64,000 bases of DNA from Balamuthia mandrillaris (Eukaryota): NCBI GenBank assembly GCA_031835245.2, contig JAVKOQ020000002.1:496001-560000 (forward strand), written 5' to 3'. The translations under genes and the position numbers were made by a program. The notes under the pieces are model-generated. The model was not told the origin of the DNA. It worked only from the letters and a program-made list of their open reading frames with translations, and made no database searches. Of the stretch, positions 19,009-50,340 are shown piece after piece. Position 1 is the stretch's first letter; each line of letters begins with the position of its first letter.

Positions 19009-19383
19009 ATGGAAGAGGCTCAACCGCGCCATGGCCAGGCGCGAGCCCCACGCCGTCTCGCCTCTCGGAGGCTCCGCTTTGAGCAGTTACCCGACGAGGT
19101 GAAGCTGCTCGTTTTCTCGTTTCTATCCACCGTTGAGCTGCGCATCATACAGGTCGTGTGCCGGGAGTGGCTCGTGCTGGCCAATGAGCCTTCCCTTTGG
19201 AGACATAAAAACCTTCGTGCTGCCTTTCATTCCTTCTTCTTCTTTTTGCTTCTCTTCATGTCGTTTCTCTCTTCTCTTGTATCTCCCTCTCTTCTTTCTC
19301 TTCTCTGCTTCTCTGCTTCGCTGCATTGTTCACTATCCTCTTGCTTTCTCTTTCTCTTTCGTCGTTTCTCTTTCTCTATCTCT

Positions 19384-19431
<48 letters not shown>

Positions 19432-20442
19432 CGACTTTGCTGACTCCAAAAATAGAAATAATAAGAACAGCAAAAAAATTGGACGGCAAACTCCACCAGC
19501 CAACGAAACGGAACACGTCTAACAACCATCTGCCATCGCGCTATAAGGTGGTAATGGTGGGACCAGGCGGATGCGGCAGAAACGCTTTCATTGTGCGTTA
19601 CGTGAATGGCAGCTTTATAACAAAATATGACCCTGTTATTGCAGACGAGTACGTTTATTGAACGAATGTTTCTTTCATTCATCCTGACATGCTCCTTTTG
19701 ATATGCTAGGTATATGACGACAGCTGTGGTAGATGGAGTTGAGGTCATTTTGGACCTCGTGGTTACCGGCGGCCAAGAAGAATATGCAGCTCGTCAGTAC
19801 ATTCACTCCCCATTTCTCTCATCCCATGCTTGTTTTGTTCTTGCATCTCATGTAAATTCCCTTTGCTGCTTTCCAGTTCGAGAGCAATTCGAGAAAGTGG
19901 CAGATGGCATTCTCGTCTTGTACTCCATCAACTCACGTGCTTCCTTCGACTTGGTTCGCCGCTATGTGCAGAGCGTCCTCCGTTCACGCGGGTGCGACAT
20001 GAGCACATGTCCTCCCATCATCCTCCTCGCCAACAAGATCGACTGTGAGTCCGAGCGAGCGGTCTCCACAGAAGAAGGCAAGGAGCTTGCCAACTCCCTG
20101 CTTCAGTATAGATGGTCGTATTTTGGTGCCTCTCCGCCACCTAAGAAGAACCGACCGCACAACAATGAAAAAGCAGACAGAGAAACTAAAAGCGGTGACA
20201 AAGAGGAAGCTGAAGAAGCAGAAAGAAGACGCAGTGGATTTTGTTTCAGAGATAACTTTTTTGAATCCAGCGTGAAGAACAACGTGGTGGTTCCCTACGG
20301 AGGAGAGGCCGTTCAAGGTCAAGATGTTGTGGTGGAAGAAATGGTGCGACAGATCGATGAATGGAGAGTCAGAATGCAAAGCCAACAACAGACCCAACAG
20401 AACTCCAAACACGACGATACCAAACGTTGCCTTCTCATGTGA
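19009..20442 (+). CDS. F-box-Ras-like pseudo-GTPase A with CaaX (exons 19009-19216, 19456-19648, 19710-19792, 19877-20442)
   Basis: F-box FEQLPDEVKLLVFSFLS..L..IQVVCREW..LANEPSLW. Ras fold YKVVMVGPGGCGRN, YDPVIADEY, VTGGQEEY, LANKID, ESSVK, ending CLLM. Confidence 0.88.
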
Positions 20443-20549
20443 TACCCAGCAGAGAGCAACGCCAACTATTAAGTTCATGTACTACAGGAAAACAAAAAAC
20501 AACACAAAAAATAGAAAGGAAAGAGACAGCAGATCGCCATAGGCGCGAG

Positions 20550-21596
20550 CGTAATGGATACTGTGCGCCAATAATCGCTGGTCAAGCAGCCACACGTTTG
20601 GCTGGCGAAGGACACTCAGCCATGTCCATTTCACTCTTGAAAACCTTGACGATTGTGTACTTTGCGCTCACTCCTTTTGACCTCACCAAGGAAGCCTCCC
20701 AAACCCCAAAAGCAGGTGCTTCAGAGCAAGCAAGAGGGAAGCCTCCAAAGTTTGTTGAAGCAGAAGCCTTTGGGTTTTGGTAGGAGGGGCGATGAGAGAG
20801 ACAATTGGTAGATGCCTATTGGTGTAAGCTTGCTGGTCGTAATGTTGATTATTGCGGGGCTGGTTGGCAGGATTGAAAGGATTTGCGGTTCTGGAACGGG
20901 GTCTGGTTCCATGGCTATACAGGGCATCTCATGTAGGTTACGGGTTGGCATGAGCTCCGGAATAGTAGGGCGTTGGTTCGTGTTGTTGGAGGTAAGTAGT
21001 ACGTTGGGTGGTAGGGCTCTGCTTGGTTTGTTTCTCCTGTGCCTGGGCTGTGAAGGAGGCTAGGAGGGTCTTGCCCATCCCCTCCGCGGAAGACCCAACC
21101 GCCGCCAGCTCCAGAGACAGATCCATGCCTTACGGTATTTGCTTAGGATGAATCCGGTTATGTCGTGGACGTCCTCCTTGTGCGAGTTGATGGCTCGTTC
21201 CCGAGCGTCCATGGCGAGCAGTTGGTTTATCCGTATCTTTCTCCCTGATAGGCGGAGATTTCCTTCGGTTTGCAGACGTCCGTCTGGTGGAGGATACTCA
21301 GGGCGGCTGCAACGTTCCTCGGTAATTCCTGTTCCTCTTGATGGTGGTTCTGTTGGTTGTTGCTTTTTCTGTTGGTGGGCGTGGCAACGTCCAAGTTGTT
21401 CATGATCCAGTGCTTCTGGTCTGCCAAACCCAAAAGGGCGGCAAGAGGTAACGTCCAAGGCCTTGACGTCCAAAGGGCGGCAGACTGGGGCCTTGGGGCA
21501 AGGGTCTGGTTTACCGGCGACACGCGGGGGGGCGGAGGCGGAGGCGGCAGCTCTGGGGCGGTGACGGGCTGGAAGCCCTGGTTCCTGGCGGCTCAT
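20550..21596 (-). pseudogene. Possible decayed, frameshifted coding relic of unknown origin
   Basis: Protein-like segments alternate between frames (21227-21523, 21060-21596, 20938-21126) with stops. No splicing solution was found. Confidence 0.3.
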
Positions 21597-22472
21597 GGCT
21601 TCCCAAAAGGTAACCTTCGTCTTGACAGAGCCTACCTGAAAGAAGAGAATTGGAAAACTTTAAATAAAGGAATAGGGGAGTGTCGGTGAAATGGGGTCCA
21701 AGAATATCAGTCGCTGGTAAGACTGATAGCTGTTGTGTGAGGGTGGGTCACAGTGCGAGTAGAACTCGATGTGTGTTTCTCGTTGAAACTATAAATAAAT
21801 AAAAAAAAATATCGCTTTGGCGCAGTTCTAAGGGAAGCAGCGCCAAGCAGTAACGGTCAGTTTTCTTTCCAAATAGCATCTGTTTCACCAACCGCCATCC
21901 CGCCTAGAAGCTTCATTGGTCCGGCACATCCGCTCCCAACTCCGTTCCTCCCGCGCTCTCCTTTGTTTATATTCCTCTTTATCCGCGGACTCGACATCTC
22001 ATTTTTGTGCGCCATCTTCAGCTGGAGCATCTCGCATTGGTGGGGAAATTCGAAAAGGGACAAAAACCGGGGAAAGAGATGGTAAAAGGTGAAGCCATCG
22101 TTCCGCTCCGATCCAACTGCCCGTGGTCCCAATAACAAGCCGCTCAAACAAGTTCACGAAAGAATCTTATTTTTTCTTTTCAACAGAGCGATGCAGGGCG
22201 GAAAATGAAATTTCGGTCCAAACAACAACTTTCCCGCCATTTTCGGTTGTCGACACCAGACAAGCGGAAGGATTTTACGGGACGACATGATGATGTATAT
22301 GTGTCGACGGCGAAAAGAAAGAAAAAGAGGAAGGCGAAAAAAAAACGCTTTTTCCGTTTTTGTTTGTTGTTGTTGTCTCAGTCCCTCTACCCAGTGCGAC
22401 GTTGAATCTAGACGATTTCTTTGCTTTCGCTCATTTTGGCCTCTATCTCTTTTGAGACCTCAAAAAATAAAA

Positions 22473-23731
22473 ATGTCTTTTTGGTTGTTTGGACGACAAA
22501 AAACTCCCAAAGGTTTGTTTTTTTCTTTCCTCATTTGATTTTATTTTATTTTTTTTTGAAGGAAAAGAGCTAATCGAAAGAATAAACCAAATGGCTGGTT
22601 TTCCTTTGAGCAGAAATATTGCGGGAGCATCAACGTACCTTACGAAGAGCTATCCGTGATATTGACAGAGAAAGGACAAACCTGGAGCGGCAACAACAAA
22701 AACTGACCATTGACATCAAGAAAATGGCAAAAGAGGGACAAATGGTTTGTTGTTCTTGTTTTTGTTACATATTTTCGAAACCTAATCTAACCTTTTTTAT
22801 TTGAACAAAAATAAATAAAAAGGGAGCAGCAAAAATAATGGCGAAAGATCTGGTGCGAACGCGACAGCACATCACCAAGTTTTACAAGCTGCGCTCGCAC
22901 TTGCAGGCCGTTAGCCTTCGTATACAGACGCTGCAGTCGACGCAAGCCATGTCAGACGCCATGAAAGGAGCTTCGCAGGTATAATTTAGTTTCTTCTCTT
23001 CCTTCTCTTTCTTCTCTCTTCCCTCTCTTCTCTCGAACTACAATAACGCAACACCTCTCACTCCTTTTCTCTTGTTCTTATGTTCCTATGCTCTGTCTCT
23101 TATGCCTGTCTTCTTTCTTCGGCCCGTTTTCTTTTGCGTTGCAGGCAATGACAATGATGAACAGACGAATGAATATTCCAGCGATGCAAAGGGTACTACA
23201 AAACTTTGAGATGCAATCGGAACAAATGGACATGAAGCAAGAGATGATGGGAGATGCCATGGACGACCTCTTTGAGGAAGACGATGAAGAAGAACAGATG
23301 GATGACATAATCAATCAAGTGTTGGATGAGATTGGCATCAATCTTTCTGCTGAAGTACTCCTTCTTCTGCTTCTTGGGTTTCCTTGGTGTACTATCACTG
23401 ACGCCTCTCTTTTATGTTTGTTCTTTTTTTCCGTTTGCAGCTGGTGGACACACCGGGAAGTGGAGTTGGTGTACAACAAGCAAAAGCCAAAACAGCGGCT
23501 GTTCTGACCGAAGGATCCTCCGCTCCACCTCCTCCACGAAATAACAGCAACAACAACAATAATAATAACAAACCGGGAGGAAGCGGCGGTAATGGAGGAG
23601 GAGGTGGGGGAGGTGGAGGAGGCGGAGGAGGAGGTGGTGGCATGGGTGCACCTTCTTCATCCTCAGCTAGCGGAAGTGATGTAACGGATGATGAACTTCA
23701 GGCCAGACTAGATGCTCTCAAGAGAATGTAA
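22473..23731 (+). CDS. CHMP2: ESCRT-III subunit CHMP2/Vps2 (5 exons)
   Basis: MSFWLFGRQKTPK|EILREHQRTLRRAIRDIDRER...AKDLVRTR..LQAVSLRIQTL..AM..AMKG..EMMGDAMDD..QVLDEIGI, with C-terminal MIM DDELQARLDALKR. Confidence 0.95.
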
Positions 23732-23881
23732 ACCGAACATCTTCGTTTGCTTTCTTTTCTTATTTTTTTTTTGTACAAACAAATCCGATTATTTAGTCAG
23801 TTTGTCGATGATTATTGCTATTCGTGATTATTCGGTTTGTTTTTTCGATGATTCCTATTTCTTGCGATACAATCCAATTAT

Positions 23882-24648
23882 TTAGTCCGTTTTTCGATGA
23901 TTTCTGTTTCCAGCGATAAAATGGGTCACCCGAACGAGAATGGAGCGCAGATAAGACAAACACCAAACGAACTGCATGAGCAGGGTCACGTAGAGCAAAA
24001 CGTTCTGAAGGAGGACGGCCGTTTGGTACCACCACTCCTGGCTGTGCACGTTAAAGTGGACAATGATCATTCGCATCGTCCAGTTGTAGGCCAGCAGCAA
24101 AGCGGAGGTGATCATGTTGCGGATTGTGCCTTGCATCCACCTTTCTAGGTCCTTTCACCGAACAATGAATGATCAGAGAGGAAAGAAAAAAGAAAGAGCC
24201 AGAGAAAGGATAAAGCAAGATAAGAAAAAAGACAACACATAGTAGAGAGAAGGAAGAAAGGAAGAAAGAATGGAAAGGAAGGAAAGAAAGAAGAAAGGAG
24301 AAACAAAGAACATATTTGTGAGATTACTCACTCTTTGCCAGAAGAGAAGGTCGATTTCATGAAGACCAGAGGCCACACAATTGACCAACACGCACCCGAC
24401 CAACCACTTGTGTGCAGCAAAGGCATCCGATACCAAAAAGTAGGCCACGGCAGCGTAGGGGAAGAGCCATGCCAGCACCGCCATTTGCGGGGAGTCCAGA
24501 CGACGGTCCAAAGAAGAACGAAGAGAAGAAGGGAGGAGCCGGTAGTCCTCATCTTCTAGAAAACTGAGATAAAGCCAGCTCGTCCGTGGCAAACTTTTTG
24601 TTTTTGGCGTTCGTGTTTAGGTGTTGTTAAAAGAAGAGCAGAAGAGAC

Positions 24649-24695
<47 letters not shown>

Positions 24696-25038
24696 AGAGA
24701 TGCAGAACACATGAAAAGAGATAGAAAACGAGAGGAGAAGAGAGCACAGAGAACGAACGAGAAACGAGACGAGAAAATAGAAAGGGAGGAAGCCGCAGAA
24801 GAAGAACGAGAAGAAGAAGGCTAGAAGGGTACGTGAGGAAAGTGAAAGCCAAAGTGCGAGTCTTCCACTGGAGGTTATGTTGGTTGATATAGTCCTGAAA
24901 AGCGTCCCACGAGGTTGATAGCTTGTCGCCTTTGTCCCCGACAGCCTGGCTGCCAGTTGGCAACATCACCACCAACAACAAAACCACTGCCCAGCACCAA
25001 GCCGGCAGCACGCTCTTCCTCACGGTGCCACAGCGCAT
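23882..25038 (-). CDS. Uncharacterised multi-pass membrane protein with a signal-peptide-like N-terminus (3 exons)
   Basis: ORFs 24556-25038, 24173-24592 and 23882-24136 are separated by pyrimidine-rich GT-AG introns and contain several hydrophobic helices. Confidence 0.6.
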
Positions 25039-25367
25039 CTTGCTCTCTCTTTGTTTCTTTTCCTGTTGCTTTTTTTTTTCCTTCGAATTTTTTTAGTTAA
25101 ATTAAAGCGGACAATAATTTCCAAACGTAATTCTTTCAACTTTGGCTGATGTCATCATGCCCACTTTAATTTAATTAGTTGGTGATCAGATCTCAAACAT
25201 TGCGACTCTGACTAGACTTTTTGTCTCTAATTTGTGTCTAGATGCTTGGCCTTGGTGGGTAATGCATTACCCCGAAATTGGGTTCAGCTTGAATAATTTG
25301 TTTTGCTTCTTCTTCGTGGCCGCCGAGACACAAGAGAAACTGAGTCGAAGGAGGACAAACAAAAAGG

Positions 25368-26644
25368 ATGAGCGTTGACGACGAAGACTGGGAGATCGCT
25401 TCGGACGACAGCCATGACGAAGGCTACAGCTCCTCCGATGCGGAAGAGGACTCCCCTCCAGAGAAACATACTATTCCTTCCGCTCCTCCTCCAAAACTCA
25501 AAAGGACAGCACAACAAGGAGAAGGAGGAGAGATTTGGCGAAGCATAGAACTGCTTCTCACCGAGAAAGAGAAACGCTCCTTTGAACTTTCTGTGGGTGA
25601 GCTTTTGGCTCGGCGGAGAGCAGACAAATTGAAGTCCAGCTCTGCTGAGAAACTGCCTGCACCTCCGCTTTCTTCTTCTTCGGCGACGGCCACTCCAGTT
25701 GGAAGACAACACAAACAGATCAGAAACCGAATCAAAGTGGGGGATGGAGAGGAGGAAGTGGACGAGGAATTAATACTTTCCGCCATGGAAATGAGTCTTT
25801 CAGGACATGGTTCTAAAATTGAGGAAAAGGATGCTGCAGGTATGTCCTTAACCTTTCTTTCGTTCTGCCCTCTTCTTGTCTGTCTTGTTCTTGTTCTTCC
25901 TATTCTTGTTCTGCTTCTGCTTCTTTGTTCTTGTTTATTCTTTTGTTGCTGCTGCTTTCTAAACAAGTCTTATACCAGACCAAGAGACACAAAAAGAAGG
26001 AGAAGACGCTAAACAAGAAGACAACAACAAAAAAGATGATGAAAAAGAAGTCATCCGAAAGCGATTGGAACAAGCGAGGGCACTTCTTATGGAGCGCAGA
26101 CAGTCAACTCGCGCGATGAGCGGCAGTCCTCCTTCCACCTCCTCTTCGGCCGGTTCTTCTACGACCTCCTCGGCCTCTTCCTCGATGGTCCTCAAGAGAG
26201 CCAACTCTGCTCCTTCCTTCGTGAACGAGCTCGAACAACAGAGAATCCTTCAAAGGCAAAAACAGCAGCAACTCGAGTTACTCAAGGAGAAGAGCAGGAA
26301 TGAAGTGGAGGTTAATTCCTCTCGTCAAAGTTGGAAAGCGGCAGCCTCAGACAAGACTGAAAGAAAGTCGTTGCTGCTAGCTCAACAACAACTTCATCAA
26401 CAACTCCAACTTCCTTCTTCACCTCCTTCCTCATCCTCTTCCTCCACTTCTTCTGGTTCTGGTGCAGCAACGCACACCAAACGACGATCGGAGACAGTGA
26501 ACGGAAGACATTTTGTGGAGTTGCATAAGTATATCGGTCGTTGGAAGAAACGGAGGATCAGGTTCACTGTTGCCATTCCCAACCTCAACTGTGTCGTTGG
26601 GCAAGAATTGGTCATTAATGGTTTGCTATTTTCTAAAACAGGAA

Positions 26645-26681
<37 letters not shown>

Positions 26682-27710
26682 GAAAAAGAGCGAGAAGAGA
26701 GAAGAGAGAAAAGAGTTTCTTTTATCTTCTAACTTTGAGCCCTTTCAGTTGGTATCGAGAACGAATCACAAGTCATAGTACAAGCAATCCGAGCGAAGCT
26801 CTTTGCCAGAGACAAAATCGCTGTTGCAAACTCGGGTTCATTCATCGACTCTCCACAACAGCAGCAACAGCAACATCAAGAAAAAGAAAAAGAAAAGAAG
26901 AGCAAGAAGGACAAAGACGCGTTTGTTATAGGCTCTCCGACCGGTTTCCAGAAGGTCACCGATCCATCTTCACATGCTGCGACCACCATTCCAACACCAA
27001 CATCACCAACACCTTCAGGCAAAGGAACGTTTTCCAAGTCTTTTCCGAAAGCGGTAACTCGTTCGGTTCGTGGCAACAAGAGCCAAAAGAAAGAAGAGAT
27101 TGTCATCGGCTCTCCTACGGGCTTCCAAAAGCTTTCCGGCAACTCTCCTTCCTCTCCTTCTTCTCCTCCTACCTCTCTAACTCCTTCTGCTTCATCGCCA
27201 CCATCTTCTTCTTCCTCTTCCTCACAACAACCGACGTTTTCTATCAACCTTTCTCGAGGACCAAGAAAAGAAGGACCAAGGGTGAGCACAGCACGCGCTG
27301 CTAGAGCTCAACAGCAACAACAGCTGTCCACACGAACGTCATCCACTTCATCATCAACAACAACAGAGGTTCCTGATCATCTCACCCATTTAGTGTCTCC
27401 ACGTGGCACTCATTCTCTTCGTGGACGAAAAGAAGGCACAACTTCATCCCCACCTTCTCCCACGTCTGCTTCTTTAGCCCCAAGCCTTGTTTTGGCCCAA
27501 CAAGAAGTCCAGGTCGCAATGGGAGCGAGCAGTGAAGGAGGAGCAGTAGCGGCATTACAAACGGAGGTACGGTTGAAAGTGGCAGTGGATGATCCAAAAG
27601 TGAAGGCAGACAAAGAGGCGTGGTGCTTCCAGTTGCGAGTGGAATGTGTCATCCAGAAACACAAACCGATCATCGCCAAAGTACCTCTCTCCATTCGCTT
27701 CCTAAACTAA
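25368..27710 (+). CDS. Protein with an arrestin-C-like beta domain interrupted by two CRIB-like motifs (exons 25368-25839, 25979-26620, 26749-27710)
   Basis: IRFTVAIPNLNCVVGQELVIN|VGIENESQVIVQAIRAKL ... FQLRVECVIQKHKPIIAKVPLSI fits the arrestin-C pattern. VIGSPTGFQK occurs twice. Confidence 0.6.
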
Positions 27711-27726
27711 AGATGTTTTTTTAATG

Positions 27727-29173
27727 TCACATAAGAATACAACGTTTATCGTTGTTTGAGCAACGCTGCTCTGCTTTTTGTTGTTCCAGTTTCAACCCAA
27801 CATGCCATCGCCATTCGTCAATCTGTCGAACGATTTCTTCCATCACCACTGCTTCTCCTTGAATCGCTTCTCTTCCAAACGGAACGACCATGCCATCTTT
27901 CACGCTGCACTCAAAAAAGTTATCCCTGAAGCAGAATCCACCCGCTTCCTTCTTCTCTCTGGTTGTGGTTCGCCAAGACGAAGGGGTGGACGAGAACCAT
28001 TGGTACTGGAGCAGAGAGTTGGCAAGCTCTTTGCCTTGTTTCGTGGAGACCTCTCGTTGCGTGGATGCAAGGTCAATCTTGTTGGCGAGAAGGATGATGG
28101 GCGGGCATGTTGTCATGTCGCACCCGCGAGAACGGAGGATGCTCTGCACAAAGGCGCGGACGGTTTGGAAGGAAGTGCTCGAAGTGATGGAGTACAGGAG
28201 AAGAAAGCCATCTGCTGTCCTCTCGTATTGATGCCTCACTGAAGGTAGAAATGATAATTAGAGTGTTGCACTTTCAAGTAGAAGGCAGTGGGAAAGAACA
28301 AGGAGAAGAACAGCAGAGGACAGAGTACAAGCAGAATATTCTTCTTGACCGGCAGTTACCACCAAGTCCAACACGACTTCCACCCCATCCACGACTATCA
28401 TCTTCCTAAAACTGTTACGCCAGCCAACAGGAAGCATCAACTGCTGAGACAAACAAAACAAAGTAGTTGAAGGGCAACACCAACCTATCTTCAATGACGG
28501 GGTCGTATTTCTCTATGAAGCTGCCCTGCACGTAATGCACCACAAACGCGTTTCTGCCACATCCTCCGGGACCCACCATTACCACGTTATACTGCGCTAA
28601 GCGCTGCCTGTGAAGGTGGTTGTGGCTTGATTTGCGATAGGTTGGGGGCTTGTGGTGGCTATGCGAACTCCACTCTATCTTTTTGGCCGTTCTTACTGGG
28701 CCTGTTTTGTGGAACGGCAGGTTAAGAGACGTACACCGGAAACCGAACAACAGAGACGTACCGAAGTATTTGTCTTTCCACAGGGAGGCTTCTGAACCAA
28801 GCATCCGCCATTCAAGGCACACGCATTGAACCAGCCGCAGTTGAACGGCGGTAAGATATGAAAAGATAAGCAGCTTCAGTTCAATGGGCAGCTCCTCAAA
28901 GTGACACCTTTCTGTCTCTTCATCTCCCCACGAAGGGGTTTTCTTCGTTCTTTTTCGTCGCGATAGCAGACTTGTTCGTTTGCGCTGCTGTTCCCGGCAA
29001 CCGTTTTCGTCTGTGTTGCAACAGGGGAAAGCCTGTTGGTCATCATTGACGGCCGGAACGGGCGGCAATGAGGAGGAACGAGGAGGAAAGACTCTGATTG
29101 AGCGGGAGTTATGAATGGGATGGGCCGCTCCTCCGGAGGAAGAGCGCGAACGAGACCTTTGGCCGTCCTCCAT
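27727..29173 (-). CDS. F-box-Ras-like pseudo-GTPase B with CaaX (exons 29173-28762, 28701-28485, 28411-28329, 28238-27727)
   Basis: F-box FEELPIELKLLIFSYL..VQCVCLEW..SLW, then YNVVMVGPGGCGRN, YDPVIEDSF, VTAGQEEY, LANKID, ECSVK, ending CILM. The three introns have the same positions and phases as in paralog A. Confidence 0.88.
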
Positions 29174-32616: not shown

Positions 32617-35247
32617 TCAACAAACACAACAAGTGACCAACTTATTGCCACGTACGGTGGCTGTGGTTGTTGTTGATGGTGCCGCCACCACTCCTCCAGT
32701 GATGTTGCCATTGCTGCTTCTTCCTCTTCTATTGCTTGTTGAGTATGACGACGATAAACGAGTACTTCTTCTTCTTTGTGTGAGAGATTCGCTCTTTCTT
32801 CTTGTTGCGTTTGTTTTTTTTGTAGCTGCTGTTGTTCCTTTTTTCCGCTGCGATGACTTGTTCCTCTGTGAAGCCTGCTCATCCTCTTCGGGTTCTTCTT
32901 CAACTTTGACGGAGGCTCTTTGTTGGCTGCAGTTGTTCGCTTTGTTCTTCTGTTTCTTCTTGGCAGGTTTTCGTTGTTGTTTTCCAACTGAATGCATGTT
33001 TTCCTTTTGTTTCGTTGCGTCTACTTCTCTGGTTCTCTTCTTGGAGCATAGTGGAGACACGCTGCTTTCTTCTTCCCCCTCCTCCTCCTCCTCCTGCTTT
33101 ATGGCAGAAAAGGGAAGAAGCGTCTCTACGTTCTTCACCTGTTCTCTTTCTTGTCTTGTTTCCTTCTCTTCCTCTTTCTTGTCCACCTTCCCTGTCACGT
33201 CTTCTTCACCTTTGTCGTGCGATTTCTGTTTATCCTCTTTCTCTTCTTCCATTGTCGAGGTAGAAGGAGACGTAGAAGGAGATTTAGAGGGACAGGAAGA
33301 GGGAGAGGAAGAAGCTTGATCAAAAGCAAGGATAAGGCTCTGGTCGAGGATGTTGTCGGTGGGCTCCCAAGAGTTGTACTTGGAAGAGTATCCCTCCCAC
33401 TTGACGAGGTACTCCACCACCAGCTGCCGCCGTCTTACGCGATGTCGTCTAATGCGCCTCGGTCCAAACTGCACCCAGCGCTCTCTCTTGGCCAACAGCT
33501 TTTCCACATAGTAGATATTGCCGTCTTTTTCCACTGGAGGCGGGTTCTGTGTGCCTTCTTCTTTCTCTTCCTCATCTTCTTTATTCTTCCCGTTTTCTTC
33601 GTTAACATTTTCTTTATCGTTACCTTCAGCTTTATCTCCAGCTTCATCTTCAGCTTCATCTTCATCTTTTTCTGTTTCCGTTCCTGTTTCATTTCCTCTT
33701 GCTTCTTGCTGTGCTGTCGTTGTCTCGTTGTCTTTGATAAGATTGAGATTGTCTTCGAAAGGCAAAGAAGATGGAGAAGAAGGAGAGGAGGAGCAACAAG
33801 GTGACTCGGTTCCTGGTGATGGCTCTTTATTCGCTACTTCGTTTCCATTTTCTTCTTTTTCCTCTTTTGGCTCGTTCACATTCTCTATCTCGCTCTCGCT
33901 CTCTCTTTTGTTTTCGTTAAAAGAATGTTGGGGATGATCGATGTTGAGCATTGCTTTTTCTTTCAACGCTCTCTCTATGGTAGCGAGAAGACGAGTTGGA
34001 AGAGAGGTGGCAAAGGAAGGCTGATAGTCGGACCCGCTGAAATTTTCCGAGATCTCTGCGTTCTCTATTGACCTTCTCTTTCTCTTCTGTTGCTTTTTGG
34101 TTGTGGGTTCGGTTGATGTGACAGCAGAGCTTTCAACAGGCACGTTTTTCATCCGGCGTTTTCTCTTGGCTATCCTTCTTGCGTTGTTGTTTGTCGTTGT
34201 TGTGAGTTGCTGGTTTAGCTTTTGCTGCTCTATCTGTCCTGATTGATGCAGAATCTGCTGTTCAAGTGCTGAAGAAAGGAGAGAAGGAGAAACGGGCACA
34301 CAAGGTAAAGAAGGAGATGACGAGGAAGATGAAGACGAAGAGGACGAAGAGGGAGAAGGCTTTCTCTTCAGTCTTTCCTCTGCATGAGCCTTATCCACAA
34401 GATACATGTAAAACGGAATACATTTGTCCGTCCATGAGACGCCATCGCGAGGACCTGTGAACTCGGCCCAGGGATAGTGAAACATATGGCAAGGGTCGTC
34501 CTTGAAGCGATCACTCCAAGGCCTAAACCTGGGCCTAAAGTTCCGCAGAGAAACGATGCGAGTTCCATCGCGTAGGAGTTGATGGCAACGACGGAGGGTG
34601 GCCTCCTCCAAGGCAGGAGGGAAGCAGTAGTTGTTGATGAGGATGACGGTGGCTTGTCCAAACTCAAAGGAAGGAGAGGTAAGATCGCCGCGGATGAAGC
34701 CGGTCTGTCCGGTCCTAAGTCCTCGTTTCCGTAACTTTGTGTTGAGCAAAGAAGTTGAGAAACAGAAGAACAAGAAGAAGAAGTGAAAGAAGAAGAAGAA
34801 GAAGAAGAAGAAGAAGAAGAACAAGAAGAAGAAGAACAAGAAGAACAAGAACAAGAAGAAGAACAAGAAGCGAGGAAGAGAAAATGAAGAAAAGCTAACC
34901 TCCGAAGACCAATGATCGTTCAGCTCCACAGCAATGTCATGCAGGTCTTCGCGAACCTCCACGCCAAAAGCCTTGCACCCCGTCTGCGCCGCCACCTGGT
35001 TGACCACGTTGCCCACACCCGAGCCTAGGTCAAAAAACACATCGTCCCGGCCTATCCCCGCACAATGGATGATCTCGTGAACAAAAGCAGGCAGCACCTC
35101 GCCGTAGACCTCACGGGAGCCGGTGGCGTAGCGGCGGAGCACTTTCGGCTTGTAAGCTCCCGAGCATAACTTGACGTGTTCCCACAACTGGGCACATTGT
35201 TGCCAAGTGGGAAAGTTGGTGCTCTCGCTTGATTCTTCTTCCTCCAT
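32617..35247 (-). CDS. DOT1: DOT1-family histone H3K79 methyltransferase fused to a chromodomain (intron 34735-34899)
   Basis: [56 protein letters not shown] is DOT1. [29 protein letters not shown] is a chromodomain. Confidence 0.9.
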
Positions 35248-35580
35248 CTGTATATTTTTGTTTTGTTCCCCTCCCTCCTCCCACCTCCCACAGCAGTGCT
35301 CCTTCTTCTTCTCCGTCGATCTGCTTGTCTCGCTGCCCACTACTTTTTTTCTTTGTTGTCTTCGTCTTTTTTGTCGACGTTCAATTTTTGCGGACTGAAT
35401 TCCCTCTTTAGGGCATTTCAAGATTACATGAGGGGTCATATAACGTGAAAAGGAGAATTACATATTTTCTACCAAATTTCTATCAATTTTTCTGAAATGA
35501 AGGAATGCGAAGAATTTGTCGACACAATTTGAAATCGGGGCAAAAAAACCGAAAGAGAAGAGAGAAGGGGAGAAGAGGGA

Positions 35581-36174: not shown

Positions 36175-39100
36175 TTCTCTCTCTCCGTGTTTTTGTTGCG
36201 TTGTGTTTTTATGTGTTTGTTACGAATTGCCTTTTTGAACGAAAAAACAAACTGTTTTTCATTCTTACTTTATTTCTTTCTCTTTCCATTATTCTCACCC
36301 ATTGGTAGAGACTGTCTCTCATGCGAAAATATGGAGTGGAAGACGAACAAGTGGCCCTTCATCGCAGCCAAAAGTATGTTCAATACTTGTTGAAGAAAGA
36401 GAGCGCTGAAGACGGAGACGAAGATGGCCAACAAGCTCCTCCAACAGCAACCGTAAAAGAAATGCTCGACCAACGACAGAAAACTAGGGCTGCCATCCGT
36501 CGTAAACATGTTTCCACTTCTTCCTCTCCTCCTTCAACACCAAATGAGGAAAAGGAGAAAGAAGTGGAAGAGAGAGAGAAAGAGAATGAATTGTTATGCC
36601 TACAACAAAGCCCAAAAGAAGAAAGAGAAAAGCGAAAAAGAGAAATGAGGGACAAGAGGAAAGCGTTCCGAGCGCCTTATACGAGAGGCAGCACTAGACT
36701 CTTTCAACAACTACAGGAGGGAGTGGCACGTATGCATCAAAACATGGAAGAGGAAGAAAAGGAGAAATCGAAAGGAAAAAGAGGAAAAGGGAAGGAAGAT
36801 GCAGAGAAACAACAATTAGTTTGGTTGGAACATATGACGATAAGTGACATGTTCGACTTAAGAAAGAAGGTGAAGGAGGAAGAGGCTGCGAAACAAAACA
36901 ATAAAGAAGATGAACAGAAAGAAGAAAAGGAAGGAAAAGCAACAGCAACAGAACAAAAGACCAAGAAGAAGAAGGAAGAAGAAGATGAACAAGAAAGAGA
37001 ACTAGCCGGAGAAGAAAGAAGAAGCAGCGTTATGATCAAAGAAACAACATTGGCAGAACTTTTGGAGCAAAGAAGAAAGGAAAAGGCAAAGCGAGAAAGA
37101 AGAGAGAAGGAAAGAGCCAAAGCTGTTAGCAGCGGTACTGTTGCCAGAAACAAGAAGAAGCAGCAGCAGAAAAAGAAAAAGAAAAGACACACGGCCAGCA
37201 AAGAGCAGAAGAAAACGACGACGACGACTACAACTACAAAGACAAACAGGACAGATATTTCAGCTTCGAGTGATGCAACAACAAAGCCGTTGAAAAAGCT
37301 GGCAACAACAACAACAAAGAAGACAAAGGAAGAGCAAGATGAAATCAAGAAAGAAACAGCAACAACAAAAACTATGACAGAAGCGGAAAGAGAACGGCAA
37401 AGAAGAAGAAGAAAGAAGAAGCGAGCAAAGAAAAGAACAAACGCAACTGTGTTAGCAGGAGAAGAATTGATAATGGAAGGCAATGGAAAGACACTCGCCC
37501 GTAAGCCACAAGTTAAATCGGTGGCTGCTGTCGCTTCCGATGAAGGCAAGAAAGAAGTAAGAAAAAGAGACAGCAACAAAGCTAACAACACCGATAAGAA
37601 AGAAGTTATAGAAAAAGACAAGGAGAAAGCGAAACATCAACACAATGCCAACAAACAAACAGCTAATTCGATGCCAGAAATGAAGTCCGCAGTAATGAAG
37701 TCCTCAACTTCAACATCTTCAAAGCAACGACCTGGGTTGGCAAAATCTCATCCAGGAATGGACCTCTCAAGCAAAGAAAGGGAGAAATCAGAGAAGGGAA
37801 AAAAGGAAAAAGAAAAGGAGGAAAAAAGACGTATTCAAATGCAAGCCCAAGAAAGTTTGGAACAGTTGAGAAAGTGGAGACAGGAGGACCAAAAGACGAA
37901 GAAACGCAACAACGAAGCTAAACAAGATGAGTTCGTGATCAGTGGGCCTGCTTCCTTTCAACACATTCGACATTTCGATCTTAGCATGGATAAGGGCAAG
38001 AAGATACTTCTCGACGTTTCTTGTAAGTATTTTTACAGCTTACTTGTTCTTTTGTTGCTAAGCATGTCCAAAAAACAAGTGATTGAAGCACGAGGATTGC
38101 CTCCGTGTGATGAAGATCATAAGATGTACTGTTCTGTTGCGCTACTGCGATCTGTACAGAGTTTTAAGTCTCGAACCATCAAAAGCTACGAGACCAATCC
38201 AGTTCTCGAACATGATTTGACCTTGTACTGTCTTCCTTCTCATCTCTTTCTGCTGTCTCCCTTCTGTTCTTTTCCTGTTCTGGTGTGCCACTTATCATTT
38301 CCGTCTTAGCACATATTACGACAAGATACTTTTAAATCCACGACTGATGGTGAGAGTTTATTGTGTAAAGCCGAGTCGTTTTGGCAAACGGGTTCGTTCA
38401 GAAATAGGAAGAGTGACGGTGGACCTTAGCCTTCTCGAAGATAAAATAGTTAATGACCTTTGGCTGGACCTAGAAAAACCCTTAAAGAAGAAAGGGAGGT
38501 GGATTGGTGTTTGCCTTCCTGATGAGGAATGCGGATTTGTCCATCTTCGCATTCAGAAGCACTGGTTGCGCAAGGTTTGTTCCTCCTTTCCTATTTCTCC
38601 GCTTCTCTCGTTCTCTCGTTCTATCTTCCTCTCTCTCTCTCTCTCTCTCTATTTGAAGTTTTCATAAAGAATTCCAATTTTAAAAACTCTATAGAAAGGA
38701 GTGTTATCTTATTATGGATGGCCTTTACAAGCCATTCCTTTACGAGTGGAAGCTGGTGATATCGTTCTCTTCAGCGACAACGACCTCGCCAAACAAGCCG
38801 TTCAATTCGCATGTCAAAGCCAGGTTCATTCTCATCTTTTTTTCCTCTCCCCTCCTCCTCCACATGTCTCCCTCTAAATGACTGGTGTTCTTATATAAAC
38901 GTTAGTGGGACCATATGGCCATGGTCATTCGCTTACGCGATAGAAAAGGGGTGTTTCTCTTTGAAGCAACGATGGCAGGAGTGGATGTTTATAAGCTGGA
39001 CCAACGCTTGGATTTGTACAGAGAAACGGCAAAACTCGGCATCCGTCGCCTTCAGTTGGAGCGTACTTCTTCAATGTTAGAAGTCATGTATGATTTTGTG

Positions 39101-39652: not shown

Positions 39653-40309
39653 TCAACACAAGATGCATCTTTCTTTGACTTTACCTCCGATTTTTTTGGT
39701 TGCTCTTACCGCCAGGTTCTTGTTCTTCTTGACGTCGTTGCTTCCACAGCAACGACGCCGATGAACGCGGATCTCTCGAACCAGCTCAAAGAACGCCTCG
39801 TGCACGTTGACTCGAGTTTTGGCGCTGGTCTCCAGGAAGCGCGCTCCCCAACTGGCGGCCAGGTCCTTCCCTTCTCCGGTGCTCACCTCCCTGCTGTTTG
39901 CCGCCAAGTCGCTCTTGTTTCCAACGAGAGTAATCGGCACATCCTCCACCTCGTTTGCGCGGAGGATAGCTTGGTGAAGGGTTGGAAGGGCCTCAAAGCT
40001 GGCTCTGCTGGTCACGTCGTAGACAATAAGGAAGCCCTCTCCAGCTCGCATGTATTGGTCCCTCATGACAGCATATTCCTCCTGTCCGGCAGTGTCGAGT
40101 ATCTCCAAGAAACTGGCCTGGGCGTCGATGATGATTTTTTGAGTGTAAAAGTCTTCTATGGTTGGGTCATAGTCGGTGGTCCACTGGCCATTCACCATTT
40201 GGATCGTTAAACAGGACTTGCCGACCCCGCCTGGTCCCATGACTACAATGGAGTAGGTGGAGTCCGCCGACCAAGTGGAACAAAGAGACGACCGCATCTG
40301 CTTCGACAT
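39653..40309 (-). CDS. ras: Canonical Ras-family GTPase, intronless
   Basis: GPGGVGKS, YDPTIED, DTAGQEEY, NKSD, ETSAK, C-terminal CILC. Confidence 0.95.
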   Translation of the reverse strand: MSKQMRSSLCSTWSADSTYSIVVMGPGGVGKSCLTIQMVNGQWTTDYDPTIEDFYTQKIIIDAQASFLEILDTAGQEEYAVMRDQYMRAGEGFLIVYDVTSRASFEALPTLHQAILRANEVEDVPITLVGNKSDLAANSREVSTGEGKDLAASWGARFLETSAKTRVNVHEAFFELVREIRVHRRRCCGSNDVKKNKNLAVRATKKIGGKVKERCILC

Positions 40310-46105: not shown

Positions 46106-46465
46106 CTCTTTTTCGTGTTGCTGTTCGATCGAGTGGTGGGCCTTTGCTGCGGGTGGTTGGGTTGAGGTGCGCCTTCCCTGCTTGCTGCTACGTTATTTTC
46201 TTGCTTTCTTTTATTTACGTGCTTGCACAAAACGAGCTCCTGGGCTGCACGATTAGTGCTCTACTTGCGAGAGAGACCGATCAGCACAAGACTTATGATT
46301 TTTGATAGGTGATTTGATATTTTAAAGCAAATCGATCTGATTGCGATCCAAGGTTTGATTTTTTATTTGCCAGTGGAATTCATTTGAAATAAAATTTATT
46401 TGTTTAGGGGGAGATTGTGTGGTAACGCAAGCACCGAACCCAGACACAAGCAAAGACCGAGACTG

Positions 46466-49400
46466 ATGTCCTGGTCTGTTTTCAGCACCCTCTCTCTTCT
46501 TCTTTGGTTTCTTCTTCTTGTGTGCCCTGCGGTACATGCCGCTCCCTTCCTTCAACAGGAGGCAATGCTGAAGCCCTCTCGGCTGGACCTCCCCGATGAC
46601 ATCCGGTTCGGGAACAGCGGCCTCTCCCTTCGCCACGACCTTTTGGCGGTGGGAGCGGAGAAGGAGAGCAGCAAGCACGAGGGGATCTATCACGGACAAG
46701 ATTTTCCCATCTCCCAGTCTCATCTCTTCTCCGCCCTGCCGGACAACGGCGGGGTTTGGCTGTTCCGCAGGAGTCCATGGGGGACGTGGAAACAGGAGGC
46801 GTTCCTCAAATCCCGAGCCACCAGCGAAGGCGATTGGTTTGGCTTTGCTGTTGAAGTGGTGGACCCGGACACGGTCATAGTCGGTGCTCCTCTCAAAGAA
46901 CATCCAGCGGAGAAGATAGACCTGGGACCCGATTTCAACGAAACCGTCATGCCAAACATGAACTACAACTATGGAGCAGCTTACATCTTTTCTCGAGACG
47001 AGAGTCTTGAATGGAGTCAAGAGGCGATAGTGGGGCCTCCGATTGCTGTTACTGCAGGACGCTTTGGTTCGTCCGTTTCTTCCACCGAACTTGACCCAAC
47101 GACTACGATAGTTGCTGTTGGAATGCCGGGAGAGGACTCGCCGCTACAAGGGAGCTTCTCCGTGGCTCGCTACCTTCAAGACTACGCTCCTGCTTTGTCT
47201 CCTTCTTCCGGCGCTGTTGTCATTTTTCGAAGAGACAGGGAAGAAGACAATCCCAAATGGAGGATGGAAGCAGTGCTGAAACCGTTCTGGGGAGAGGCAG
47301 GAGATCAGTTTGGCTATTCTGTGGCTGCTGATGGAGACTCCATCATCGGAGCTCCTTTCGAAGACTCCACTTCAGCCGACTCGCCCATCAACGATGTCCT
47401 TGTAAACGAGCCAAACAACCTTAAAACCGACTGTGGTGCGGCGTATGTCTTTCAACGCACTATAAACGAAACCAGTGGAGAGGTTGAATGGCAACAACGC
47501 TCCTTTTTTAAGCCACGAAGGTGCGTGCAAGAGTTTGGCGCTTTTGTCGCGTTGAACGGAGATACTGCCGTTGTGAGCAATGGCGAGCAGTCGACCGCCG
47601 AAGAAGCATGGATCTTCGTTCGCGAGCCCTCAAGCCAACAGTGGAGCTCAAAACAACATATGACTCCAACGCTCACACAAGTGGCCGAAGGCGAAGTGCC
47701 CGTTGTGAATTTCGCAAAGCAAGTCGCAATGCAAGGAGATGTGATGCTATGCGGTTCTCCAGCAGAGAGAAGCAGTCGAGCCGGTATCCTCCTCAATGAA
47801 AGCTCGATCTACAATGCTACCAATGAGCCTTCAGGGGGAGTGTTTCTCTTCGTCCGAGAGGCACAAAAGGACTTCGTGGAAACGGCGATATTGAAAGCAT
47901 CGAATGCGGACCCTGCTATAGGTGCTCACATGGGCATTACGGTGAGTTACGATAGAGGCCTTGTTGCCGCAGGAGCTCCGTTCGATCAAAGCGATGAAAA
48001 GGGAGTTACTCATGGCTTTCCTTCTTCTTCGGGTTCTTCTCCAAGAATAGGAGCTGTATTTGTCTTCGCAAGTGACTTGTTTGGAGGATGCGGAGAAGCG
48101 GGCGAGTTTATGGAAGAAAGGGGAGGAAAATGTGTGAATGAAAGATGGCTATTGTTCAGCGATGAAGAAGTGGGAGGAGACGAAGTTTGGAGGGTGGAAG
48201 CGAACAAAAGAGGAGTGGCAGTGAAGGGTTCACTTGTTTTGGAGAAAGGAGGAAGGATCGAGTTTGTTTTGGATGGTGAACAGTTGGAGCGGGAGGAACC
48301 TCTTATATATGTTCGAGACTGTGCCTTGTTGAATGGTTTGTTCTCTGTTGTCACCCACTTATCGCTCTTCTCTCACTCTCACGTTTCTTTGACTTGTAGG
48401 TACTATCCAAGTGGAGTTAACCAACGTTGAGCTCAAGACACAAGTAACATTACCTCTCATCTACGAAGAAAAAGAGTTAACTATCGCTACCGTATGCTCC
48501 TTCGAAGGAGCCATCATCGAAGCAACGTTCTCATCATCAAAGAGAAGACAACAATCCATTCAAGCCTTTCTGCAGCGAAACGGAAAGTTGTTAGAAGCTG
48601 TTCTTATTCCAGACGACGTTCCTCCTCCCGATTCTGCTTCTGCATCTTCCTCTTCATCCTCTTCATCAACGGAAACTGAAAAAGAGGACTCCGAAGAGAC
48701 CAATGTTGTCGTTCCAGCCGTCGTATCAGTTCTGGTTTTCTTGTTGCTCGTTCTAGTTGCTATCTCGGCTGCATTCTTCTTTGTTCGCCGTCAGAAACAA
48801 ATCAAGGGAATAAAGGCTTTCGACGATTCGACTCTGGTAGACGAAACCGAGATGGAGGAAGGAGCCTATTTACGTCAAAGCAAGAAAGAACATGAAACAG
48901 AGGAAAAGGACGATACAGACGAGAAGAGGGACGAAGGAGAAGTAAACGAAGACGATGCTGAACACGAAGAAGGAGATGATGATGAAGTCTATTCAGTTCC
49001 AACAATCCGAAGAGAAGACGTGGAATACACAAAAGATCCCGTTGCAAGTGGAGCTTTTGGGGTAGTATTCAAAGGAATATGGAAAGGAAAGGAATGTGCG
49101 GTGAAGGTTTGCAGCGCTATTATGGTTGACGCACAAATGAGAGATGAGTTCATCCGAGAAGCAGAAATGATGCAGTGCGTTATCTCTTTCTGTTTTTTCT
49201 TTTTTGATCACTTGTCTAATGTTCTTCTTCTTCTTCTTCTTCTTCTTCTTCTTCTTCCTCTTTTCCTTCTTCTTCGTTTTGAAATCAAAGTCAGTTGGGA
49301 GGAAAAGAGAACTACTGCACGACTTTATATGGAGTGATGAAGAAAGGTAATCGTATGTGTCTCATCACGGAATGGGCGGAACATGGATCGGCCTTTGACC

Positions 49401-49944
49401 TTCTGATCAACCCAAAGACGCGAAGAGAAGACGTTCCTTGGTTGGTGGTGGTGAAGATTGCGCGTAATGCAGCCAGAGGCCTTCGTTATCTTCATTCCTT
49501 GAATGTCGTTCATCGAGGTATGTTCGCTTTTTTTAAAAAAAACCGTTCTTCTTCTTCGCCTTTTGAGGCCTGAAAGATCTGTTCTATTCTCTCCGTCGCA
49601 ACAGATGTTGCTGCAAGAAACATTTTGGTTTGTCGAAACTATAGGGCAGTTCTTGGAGACTTTGGGATGTCCAGAGTATTAGAGAAAATGTACCAAACTA
49701 CCAAAAGCAATGTCGGAGCTGTAAAGGTACAGTTCATTCATTCCTTCTATTATGCCCAAAAATGTTTATTTAAAGCTGTGTCATACAGTGGATGGCTCCA
49801 GAAGCGTTTAAGAACCATGAGTACAGCAAAGAAACGGACAGCTTTTCCTTTGGTGTCTTCTTGTGGGAGCTTTGTACCAGACAACAACCATGGCAAGACA
49901 AAGATGTCAATTATGTTGCCCATAAAGTTCTTAACGAAAGTACG

Positions 49945-49982
<38 letters not shown>

Positions 49983-50340
49983 GAAACAGTGAAACTCAAA
50001 TAACTGCAGATGAGCGTTTGCCAATACGAGAGAACGAAGATGAGGTTATGAAGGATCTGCTTATTCGCTGTTGGCAATCGGATCCAAAACTGAGGTTCGT
50101 TTCTCTCTCCCTCTCTCCCTATCTATCTCTACTCTCTCTTCTTTATCTCTGTTTCCGCTTATTCACCTTTGAAATAAATAACTACAAAGACCAAGTCTGG
50201 TGGAGATGTGCGACATTCTCGATGAGTACTATCAAACTTTGAAAAAGGAAGCACTCGAAGACACTCAGCAGAATCAGTTGCGATGCCTCTCCTCTTTTTT
50301 CTCCGATTCCTCCCGGTCCCTCCTTGTGGTGTTGTGCTGA

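Follow-up and report, generated by a model that had tools for sequence, protein, structure and literature searches.

A stretch of 64,000 nucleotides from Balamuthia mandrillaris (contig JAVKOQ020000002.1; called the window below, and all positions refer to it) holds two genes, A and B, each encoding an F-box, a Ras fold and a C-terminal CaaX box. Gene A lies on the plus strand (19009..20442; exons 19009-19216, 19456-19648, 19710-19792 and 19877-20442) and encodes 349 amino acids, and gene B lies on the minus strand (27727..29173; exons 29173-28762, 28701-28485, 28411-28329 and 28238-27727) and encodes 407. Both consist of four exons, and their three introns, all of GT-AG type, interrupt the same codons in the same phases (1,2,1); they are 60-62% identical, and neither reading frame contains a stop or a frameshift. 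An earlier note on this DNA had spoken of a pair of intact, diverged genes; they are indeed intact, but they are not adjacent: they are convergent and about 7.3 kb apart, with unrelated genes between. Further, the window contains a canonical, intronless Ras gene of a single exon (39653..40309, minus strand) with GKS, T35, DTAGQ, NKSD, SAK and CILC, which is a real control, as the note had said, and serves as control only, not as the parent of A and B.

The model of B is identical, letter for letter, to the NCBI protein P0001 (KAL6080144). For A, exon 2 is longer by five linker residues than in the NCBI protein P0003 (KAL6080139), where exon 2 starts 15 nt downstream of the start shown by an RNA-type contig; the junction of the longer form is backed by that contig. 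The NCBI name of A (KAL6080139), 'tRNA A64-2'-O-ribosylphosphate transferase', looks wrong. Intron 1 of B (28761-28702, 60 nt) and intron 3 of A (19793-19876, 84 nt) are in frame and stop-free, and retention of either would add an insert and leave the frame unbroken. In B it follows that a single open frame covers both the F-box and G1.

The F-box of A (residues 24-65; 19078..19203, plus strand) matches Pfam PF12937 with an E-value of 4.3e-13, and its best PDB match is the F-box of Skp2 (E 2.8e-6); that of B covers residues 92-134 (28772..28900, minus strand). For the F-box-like and Ras families the Pfam scores are 44.8 and 111.5 bits for P0003 and 38.5 and 119.1 bits for P0001, all above the cut-offs, while for the F-box family PF00646 A scores 29.3, above the cut-off, and B 18.9, just below the cut-off of 20.5. 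The closest 60 PDB sequence matches are all members of the Ras family (M-Ras, E 1e-31).

In Ras the magnesium ion is bound by S17, T35 and D57, and the phosphates are held by K16. All four residues are replaced in both A (plus strand) and B (minus strand). G1 reads GPGGCGRN (K16R, S17N; 19560..19583 in A, 28550..28573 in B), switch I reads YDPVI (T35V; 19626..19640 and 28493..28507), and G3 is DLVVTGGQ in A (D57V and A59G, with G60 and Q61 retained; 19753..19776) and DLVVTAGQ in B (28345..28368). G4 is an intact NKID (20032..20043 and 28072..28083), G5 is SVK (20269..20277 and 27898..27906), followed in A by a clade-specific insertion that is modelled with high confidence, and the CaaX box is CLLM in A (20428..20439) and CILM in B (27730..27741). 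In Ras numbering the changes common to A and B are K16R, S17N, T35V, D57V and A146V, while G12, G13, F28, Y32, G60, Q61, N116, K117, D119 and K147 are retained; domains and motifs are as the earlier note had listed them. Of the features of a canonical Ras, A and B have the fold, the Ras-family ancestry, the NKxD of G4 and the CaaX box, but lack GxxxxGK[S/T] in G1, Thr35 and DxxG in G3. A GTPase fold with non-conservative changes in the G motifs is what defines a pseudoGTPase, and both proteins show it.

In the AlphaFold2 model of P0003 (50-row alignment; predicted local distance difference test, pLDDT, 82; predicted template modelling score, pTM, 0.71) the F-box has three helices and is joined by a loose linker to a complete Ras fold; an insertion after helix 4 is of low confidence, and another after G5 is confident. 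Its best fold matches belong to the Ras superfamily (M-Ras, Z 24.1, root-mean-square deviation 1.5 Å over 166 residues).

Both genes are under purifying selection. With the NG86 method the ratio of nonsynonymous to synonymous substitution rates (dN/dS) between A and B is 0.23 overall (bootstrap 0.15-0.32), 0.22 in the G domain (0.14-0.34) and 0.14 in the F-box (0.07-0.43, with 1372 of 2000 resamples unsaturated), and the overall value is not near 1. The earlier note had argued that lesions shared by two diverged genes look selected rather than decayed. The conclusion remains likely, given the intact frames, the dN/dS, the splicing of the F-box and Ras exons of an A allele into one form and the conservation beyond A and B, but the argument from sharing does not hold, since the lesions were inherited from one ancestor and their sharing is by itself not evidence of selection.

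An 832-base contig of run X1, probably RNA, spans 19033-20223 without any of the three introns of A, and all three of its splice junctions are the predicted ones, so that F-box and Ras exons lie in one spliced form; run X2 contains the introns. Among the 40 differences from A that are shown (of 63), 21 codons are synonymous, and 17 of 17 nonsynonymous codons agree with P0002, the counterpart of A from a second contig. The X1 contig thus represents an A allele that is spliced from the F-box into the Ras domain. Raw RNA reads on A number 10 and 8, none of them across a joint, and say nothing on level or strand; among the data sets listed as containing A, none is on record as RNA.

The second contig (P0002, P0004, P0094) carries copies of both genes, A' and B', together with the same canonical Ras protein, and is likely another haplotype. 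Protein identity between the copies is 90.8% for A and 94.6% for B, and every signature residue is the same in both copies. The stronger divergence of A, compared with B and with the canonical Ras, would fit decaying duplicates. However, the absence of stops and frameshifts, the conserved introns, the dN/dS, the spliced contig, the single open frame of F-box and G1 in B and an orthologue in Acanthamoeba all contradict decay as well as a mis-joined gene model, and we regard both as largely refuted and highly improbable.

The wider family was collected with a profile of four proteins, which gave 31,170 matches at an E-value of 0.001, and the best 150 were examined. A small F-box profile was used to screen 152 proteins; it missed three carriers, and more may remain. 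Word-index searches with the first open reading frame (ORF) of B and with alignment A1 returned three Balamuthia proteins each, missed P0005 and are uninformative on range. Among 38 chosen proteins scanned with Pfam, 23 have an F-box match, 21 of them above the curated cut-off. K16, S/T17, T35 and D57 are all intact in 15 of the 23, while Arg16 is found in eight: A, A', B, B', P0005, P0007, P0023 and P0077. When the database-search matches whose G domains align at all four positions are counted, K16R occurs in 0 of 149 G domains not listed as F-box and in 8 of 23 F-box carriers, and T35V and D57V each occur in 0 of 149 and 6 of 23. The confinement of these three substitutions to F-box carriers is not due to chance.

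The full signature is present in A, A', B, B' and P0005, all from Balamuthia. These five have Asn at position 17, where P0007, P0023 and P0077 have T, M and L, and P0077 combines R16 and L17 with V35 and V57. Judged from these alignments, the conserved core of the signature is K16R, T35V and D57V, and position 17 varies. Besides A and B there are at least three further Balamuthia paralogs (P0005, P0007 and P0023), a lower bound because they were drawn from protein databases alone. In P0007 and P0023 the switch regions are eroded: switch I and G3 are gone, while the F-box (below the cut-off in P0023), R16, G4, SVK and CaaX are retained. The NCBI name of P0007, 'activation of store-operated calcium channel', looks wrong.

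A pattern scan for D57V gave five metagenome loci, of which one is true (L004) and four are chance matches in non-Ras frames, and no viral locus. L004 has V35, V57, NKLD, SVK, the same second intron and a CaaX box, and its G1 lies off the contig. A search with its last exon led to P0160 of Acanthamoeba castellanii Neff and to four environmental pieces. P0160 begins with a partial F-box and then jumps to the strand before G3, with G1 and switch I outside the model, and switch II of this orthologue carries Y64F, R68L, Q70P and Y71V. Balamuthia and Acanthamoeba both belong to Centramoebida. V57, T58, G60, Q61, E62, E63, K117, D119, S145 and K147 are invariant in A, B, P0005, P0077 and P0160; D33-P34-V35-I36 is fixed while E37, D38 and S39 vary, and the switch residues are conserved across 32-45% identity. 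A CDMxxC motif ahead of G4 (19990-20012 in A, 28124-28102 in B) is present in the Balamuthia members and absent from Acanthamoeba. The signature extends to further Balamuthia paralogs and partly to Acanthamoeba, but the wider F-box–Ras group has an intact Mg site.

Six carriers of the intact site can be named: Endostelium zonatum, Protostelium nocturnum, Planoprotostelium fungivorum, Nematostelium gracile (two, one with Kelch repeats) and Copromyxa protea. By their taxonomy, three of these species fall in Discosea, Evosea and Tubulinea. In nine of the 15 intact-site proteins (P0009, P0012, P0013, P0021 and others) Gln61 is replaced by Pro, Met, Val, Ala or Thr; these switches may be frozen in the opposite state, with GTP bound. 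In P0075 of Nematostelium gracile a Kelch/LZTR1-like propeller, an F-box and an intact Ras domain are joined in one protein.

The phylogenetic tree (35 rows, 161 of 450 columns, with columns 16, 17, 35, 57 and 146 taken out) is unrooted and thinly sampled; 13 plain Ras rows and P0158 were omitted, and Rab and Rho are not represented. One branch, with support 92/94, unites seven rows from Balamuthia with two of Acanthamoeba type. Around it a group with support 90/80 contains the intact-site proteins of Endostelium, Nematostelium, Protostelium and Planoprotostelium, two environmental ones, and P0077. The quick tree places P0077 inside the pseudo clade (SH support 82), the careful tree neither shows nor excludes this, and the approximately unbiased test does not reject it (p-value, p-AU, 0.29). 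Five other F-box–Ras proteins lie on the other side of the tree, which leaves room for more than one origin of the fusion. As far as the tree can tell, A and B belong to a Centramoebida subfamily, which lies within, and descends from, an amoebozoan group of F-box–Ras proteins in which K16, S/T17, T35 and D57 are kept. A local duplication of the canonical Ras of the window as the source of A and B is rejected (p-AU 0.0002).

A and B are thus intact genes with F-box, Ras domain and CaaX box, a common set of substitutions, purifying selection and, for an A allele, a transcript spliced from the F-box into the Ras domain. We favour, with moderate confidence, the reading that they encode prenylated substrate receptors of the Skp1–cullin–F-box (SCF) ubiquitin ligase, whose Ras fold probably no longer cycles, resembles the OFF state and serves, as in FBXO4, to dock a dedicated partner that is to be ubiquitinated. 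The F-box would bind Skp1, its textbook partner, and the CaaX box ending in Met would be farnesylated and anchor the protein to membranes. The G domain would perform no Mg-dependent hydrolysis and adopt no classical effector-binding ON state; guanine nucleotide, most likely GDP, may be held weakly or Mg-free in the retained G4/G5 pocket. The substrate would dock on the surface formed by D33-P34-V35-I36 and T58-G60-Q61-E62-E63 and on the clade-specific hairpin after G5, and it need not be a guanine nucleotide exchange factor (GEF). The prenylated SCF adaptor with a pseudo-GTPase of the earlier note therefore survives as a prediction. That P0007 and P0023 keep F-box and CaaX without the switches, and that nine of 15 relatives lack Gln61, indicates that members of this family can do without the GTPase cycle.

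A mutational scan of KRAS bears on this reading (PMC10866706, values from its Table S5). For K16R, S17N, T35V and D57V, in this order, the change in folding free energy is +0.20, +0.03, +0.40 and -0.36 kcal/mol, so that each folds near wild type, while the change in binding free energy is +1.56, +3.04, +2.33 and +2.10 kcal/mol for RAF1, +1.45, +2.71, +1.60 and +1.53 for K55, a binder of the GTP state, and -1.10, +1.96, -0.72 and +0.90 for K27, a binder of the GDP state. Each also weakens PIK3CG and RALGDS, and binding of SOS1 is weakened singly by 1.0-1.9 kcal/mol.

Several points weigh against the receptor reading. S17N and D57V weaken the GDP-state binder as well, and the KRAS values describe single mutants in the human protein, not all four changes in the scaffold of A and B. 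G12, G13, G60 and Q61, which a purely passive docking fold would not need, are retained in both. The support of the pseudo clade falls short of the starred level, and its Acanthamoeba rows lack G1. For B no junction was seen among 2, 2 and 0 reads of three raw RNA runs and one last-exon contig. Finally, binding, nucleotide state and localisation of the two proteins are predictions from sequence.

Ras S17N is known to sequester GEFs, and SOS is anchored by Y32, Y40, Y64, M67 and Y71. The earlier note had seen in A and B a trap for GEFs, prenylated decoys that capture them for ubiquitination. In structural terms, Val35 and Val57 would fill the empty Mg site and Arg16 would pair with Glu62, and a Ras domain of this nucleotide-poor shape would hold CDC25-type RasGEFs and deliver them to SCF. 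A, B and P0005 share Asn17 with the dominant-negative mutant and keep Y32, Y64, E62, E63, R68 and an aromatic residue at 71, and the fixed D33-P34-V35-I36 next to variable positions 37-39 also fits. In known GEF complexes an Ala of switch II enters the Mg site and a Glu of switch II bridges the P-loop Lys, according to PMC6767298. However, A and B, unlike Ras S17N, also carry K16R, T35V and D57V, and Asn17 is not clade-wide. The face is altered by the switch II changes in Acanthamoeba, switch II is lost in P0007 and P0023, and a RasGEF family match is found in 0 of 43 scanned ORFs of the window. In KRAS all four substitutions weaken SOS1 binding, while K16N strengthens it by 0.29 kcal/mol (PMC10866706, Table S5); yet this assay scores S17N itself as a loss of SOS1 binding and thus cannot refute trapping. 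We consider the trap unlikely. Equally unlikely, though worth keeping in mind, is that an old amoebozoan Ras lineage was rebuilt by the concerted change to Arg16, Val35 and Val57 into a Mg-free, pre-opened RasGEF bait for SCF. Such a bait would possibly be older than Centramoebida or have evolved twice (P0077), and it would be a natural, genome-encoded dominant-negative Ras degrader at the membrane.

The opposite state would result if Arg16 replaced both Lys16 and Mg2+ and GTP were bound without hydrolysis. PseudoGTPases are divided into those that bind no nucleotide (class i), those that bind it (class ii) and those that hydrolyse it (class iii; PMC5593906, Table 2), and such a protein would belong to class ii and constitutively recruit Ras effectors or GTPase-activating proteins for ubiquitination. 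R16 is the one change common to all eight signature proteins with G1 in view, and A and B keep F28, G60, Q61 and G4. The evidence from the septin Cdc11, which also has an Arg in G1, is divided: docking places this Arg on the beta and gamma phosphates, but in the apo crystal it clashes with the phosphate (PMC10731463). In KRAS, the GDP-state binder gains from K16R and T35V, and binding of RAF1, PIK3CG, RALGDS and the GTP-state binder is weakened by each of the four changes (PMC10866706). A locked GTP state is improbable, and less likely than the capture of GEFs.

The F-box might also serve no degradation of a partner, but set the turnover of the protein itself or park Skp1 at membranes, with the pseudo-Ras domain as a scaffold without ubiquitinated substrate. 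This fits every sequence result, and the paralogs with eroded switches still have F-box and CaaX. On the other hand, an N-terminal F-box followed by a C-terminal binding domain, the precedent of FBXO4 and the conservation of switch residues at 32-45% identity suggest substrate recruitment, and we give this alternative little weight.

Fusions of F-box and small GTPase are already published. In FBXO4 (Fbx4), an SCF receptor of animals that serves to degrade TRF1, an F-box is followed by a domain of small-GTPase type (PMC7086354), and FBXO4 entries are the top feature look-alikes of A and B in the Atlas (score 0.80), which is a lead only. A and B differ in a recent, clearly Ras-family domain (M-Ras, above), an intact G4 and a CaaX end. 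The domain of FBXO4 is reportedly nucleotide-free and far more diverged. Only its F-box gave a match, a weak one (E 0.09), the closest sequences and folds of A and B are of the Ras family, and the trees contain no FBXO4; its absence from the best 50 rows of either fold search excludes nothing. The Naegleria fusions of F-box with Rab, Rho, Ran or G-alpha also combine an F-box with a Ras-superfamily domain, as a lineage-specific expansion with one Rab-like subgroup that has CaaX and a proposed link to ubiquitination (Herman et al. 2021, PMC8296547), whereas the domain of A and B has its 60 best PDB matches in the Ras family and, in a tree without Rab or Rho rows, is nested among Ras-type proteins. 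In F-box/BTB–Arf fusions a small GTPase of another family is joined to a cullin adaptor motif (PMC8358228). A SOCS-box Ras cluster likewise ties a small-GTPase domain to such a motif. So do RhoBTB and Rab40 (SOCS box), with another cullin or GTPase family than in A and B. Compared with other pseudoGTPases (pG1 of p190RhoGAP, AAGAB, Rnd, RGK, septin Cdc11), which share the fold and non-conservative G-motif changes, the loss in A and B is limited to the Mg/phosphate side, with G4, F28, G60 and Q61 kept and F-box and CaaX fused.

No paper was found on an amoebozoan F-box–Ras clade of the Ras family or on its signature, in a search that did not cover subscription journals and the supplements of the Acanthamoeba and Balamuthia genomes, which may list the genes. 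The wider family is a branch of F-box proteins with Ras-family domains that spans three amoebozoan phyla and has apparently not been described before, and within it the signature marks a conserved pseudo-GTPase from which just the metal/phosphate side of the pocket is removed. The intact-site relatives in Endostelium and Protostelium and the eroded P0007 and P0023 belong to a natural series that leads from a switch to a domain that only docks. With this series one can test how FBXO4-like receptors arose, and how nucleotide pockets independent of Mg did. Since A. castellanii Neff, a laboratory amoeba, has an orthologue, the substrate should be within reach of experiment.

Elsewhere in the window, the 43 ORFs scanned with Pfam include thiamine-binding, Snf7, Spt4, DOT1, rhomboid and other families, and none matches a GEF or Skp1. 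Downstream of A (20700-21700) there are several open frames of 110-200 amino acids without Pfam matches. A plus-strand gene at 25344-27710 ends 17 bases from the stop of B and has an IGSPTGFQK motif twice, and 36309-38306 (plus strand) contains ISGPASFQH; we take both motifs to resemble those of CRIB type, and neither gene has a Pfam match. The minus strand at 32620-35457 is a single long open frame in which a chromodomain and a DOT1 histone methyltransferase domain each score above the Pfam cut-off. At 46388-50242 (plus strand), FG-GAP repeats, a probable transmembrane segment and the start of a kinase mark what is, by its predicted domains, a receptor-type kinase.

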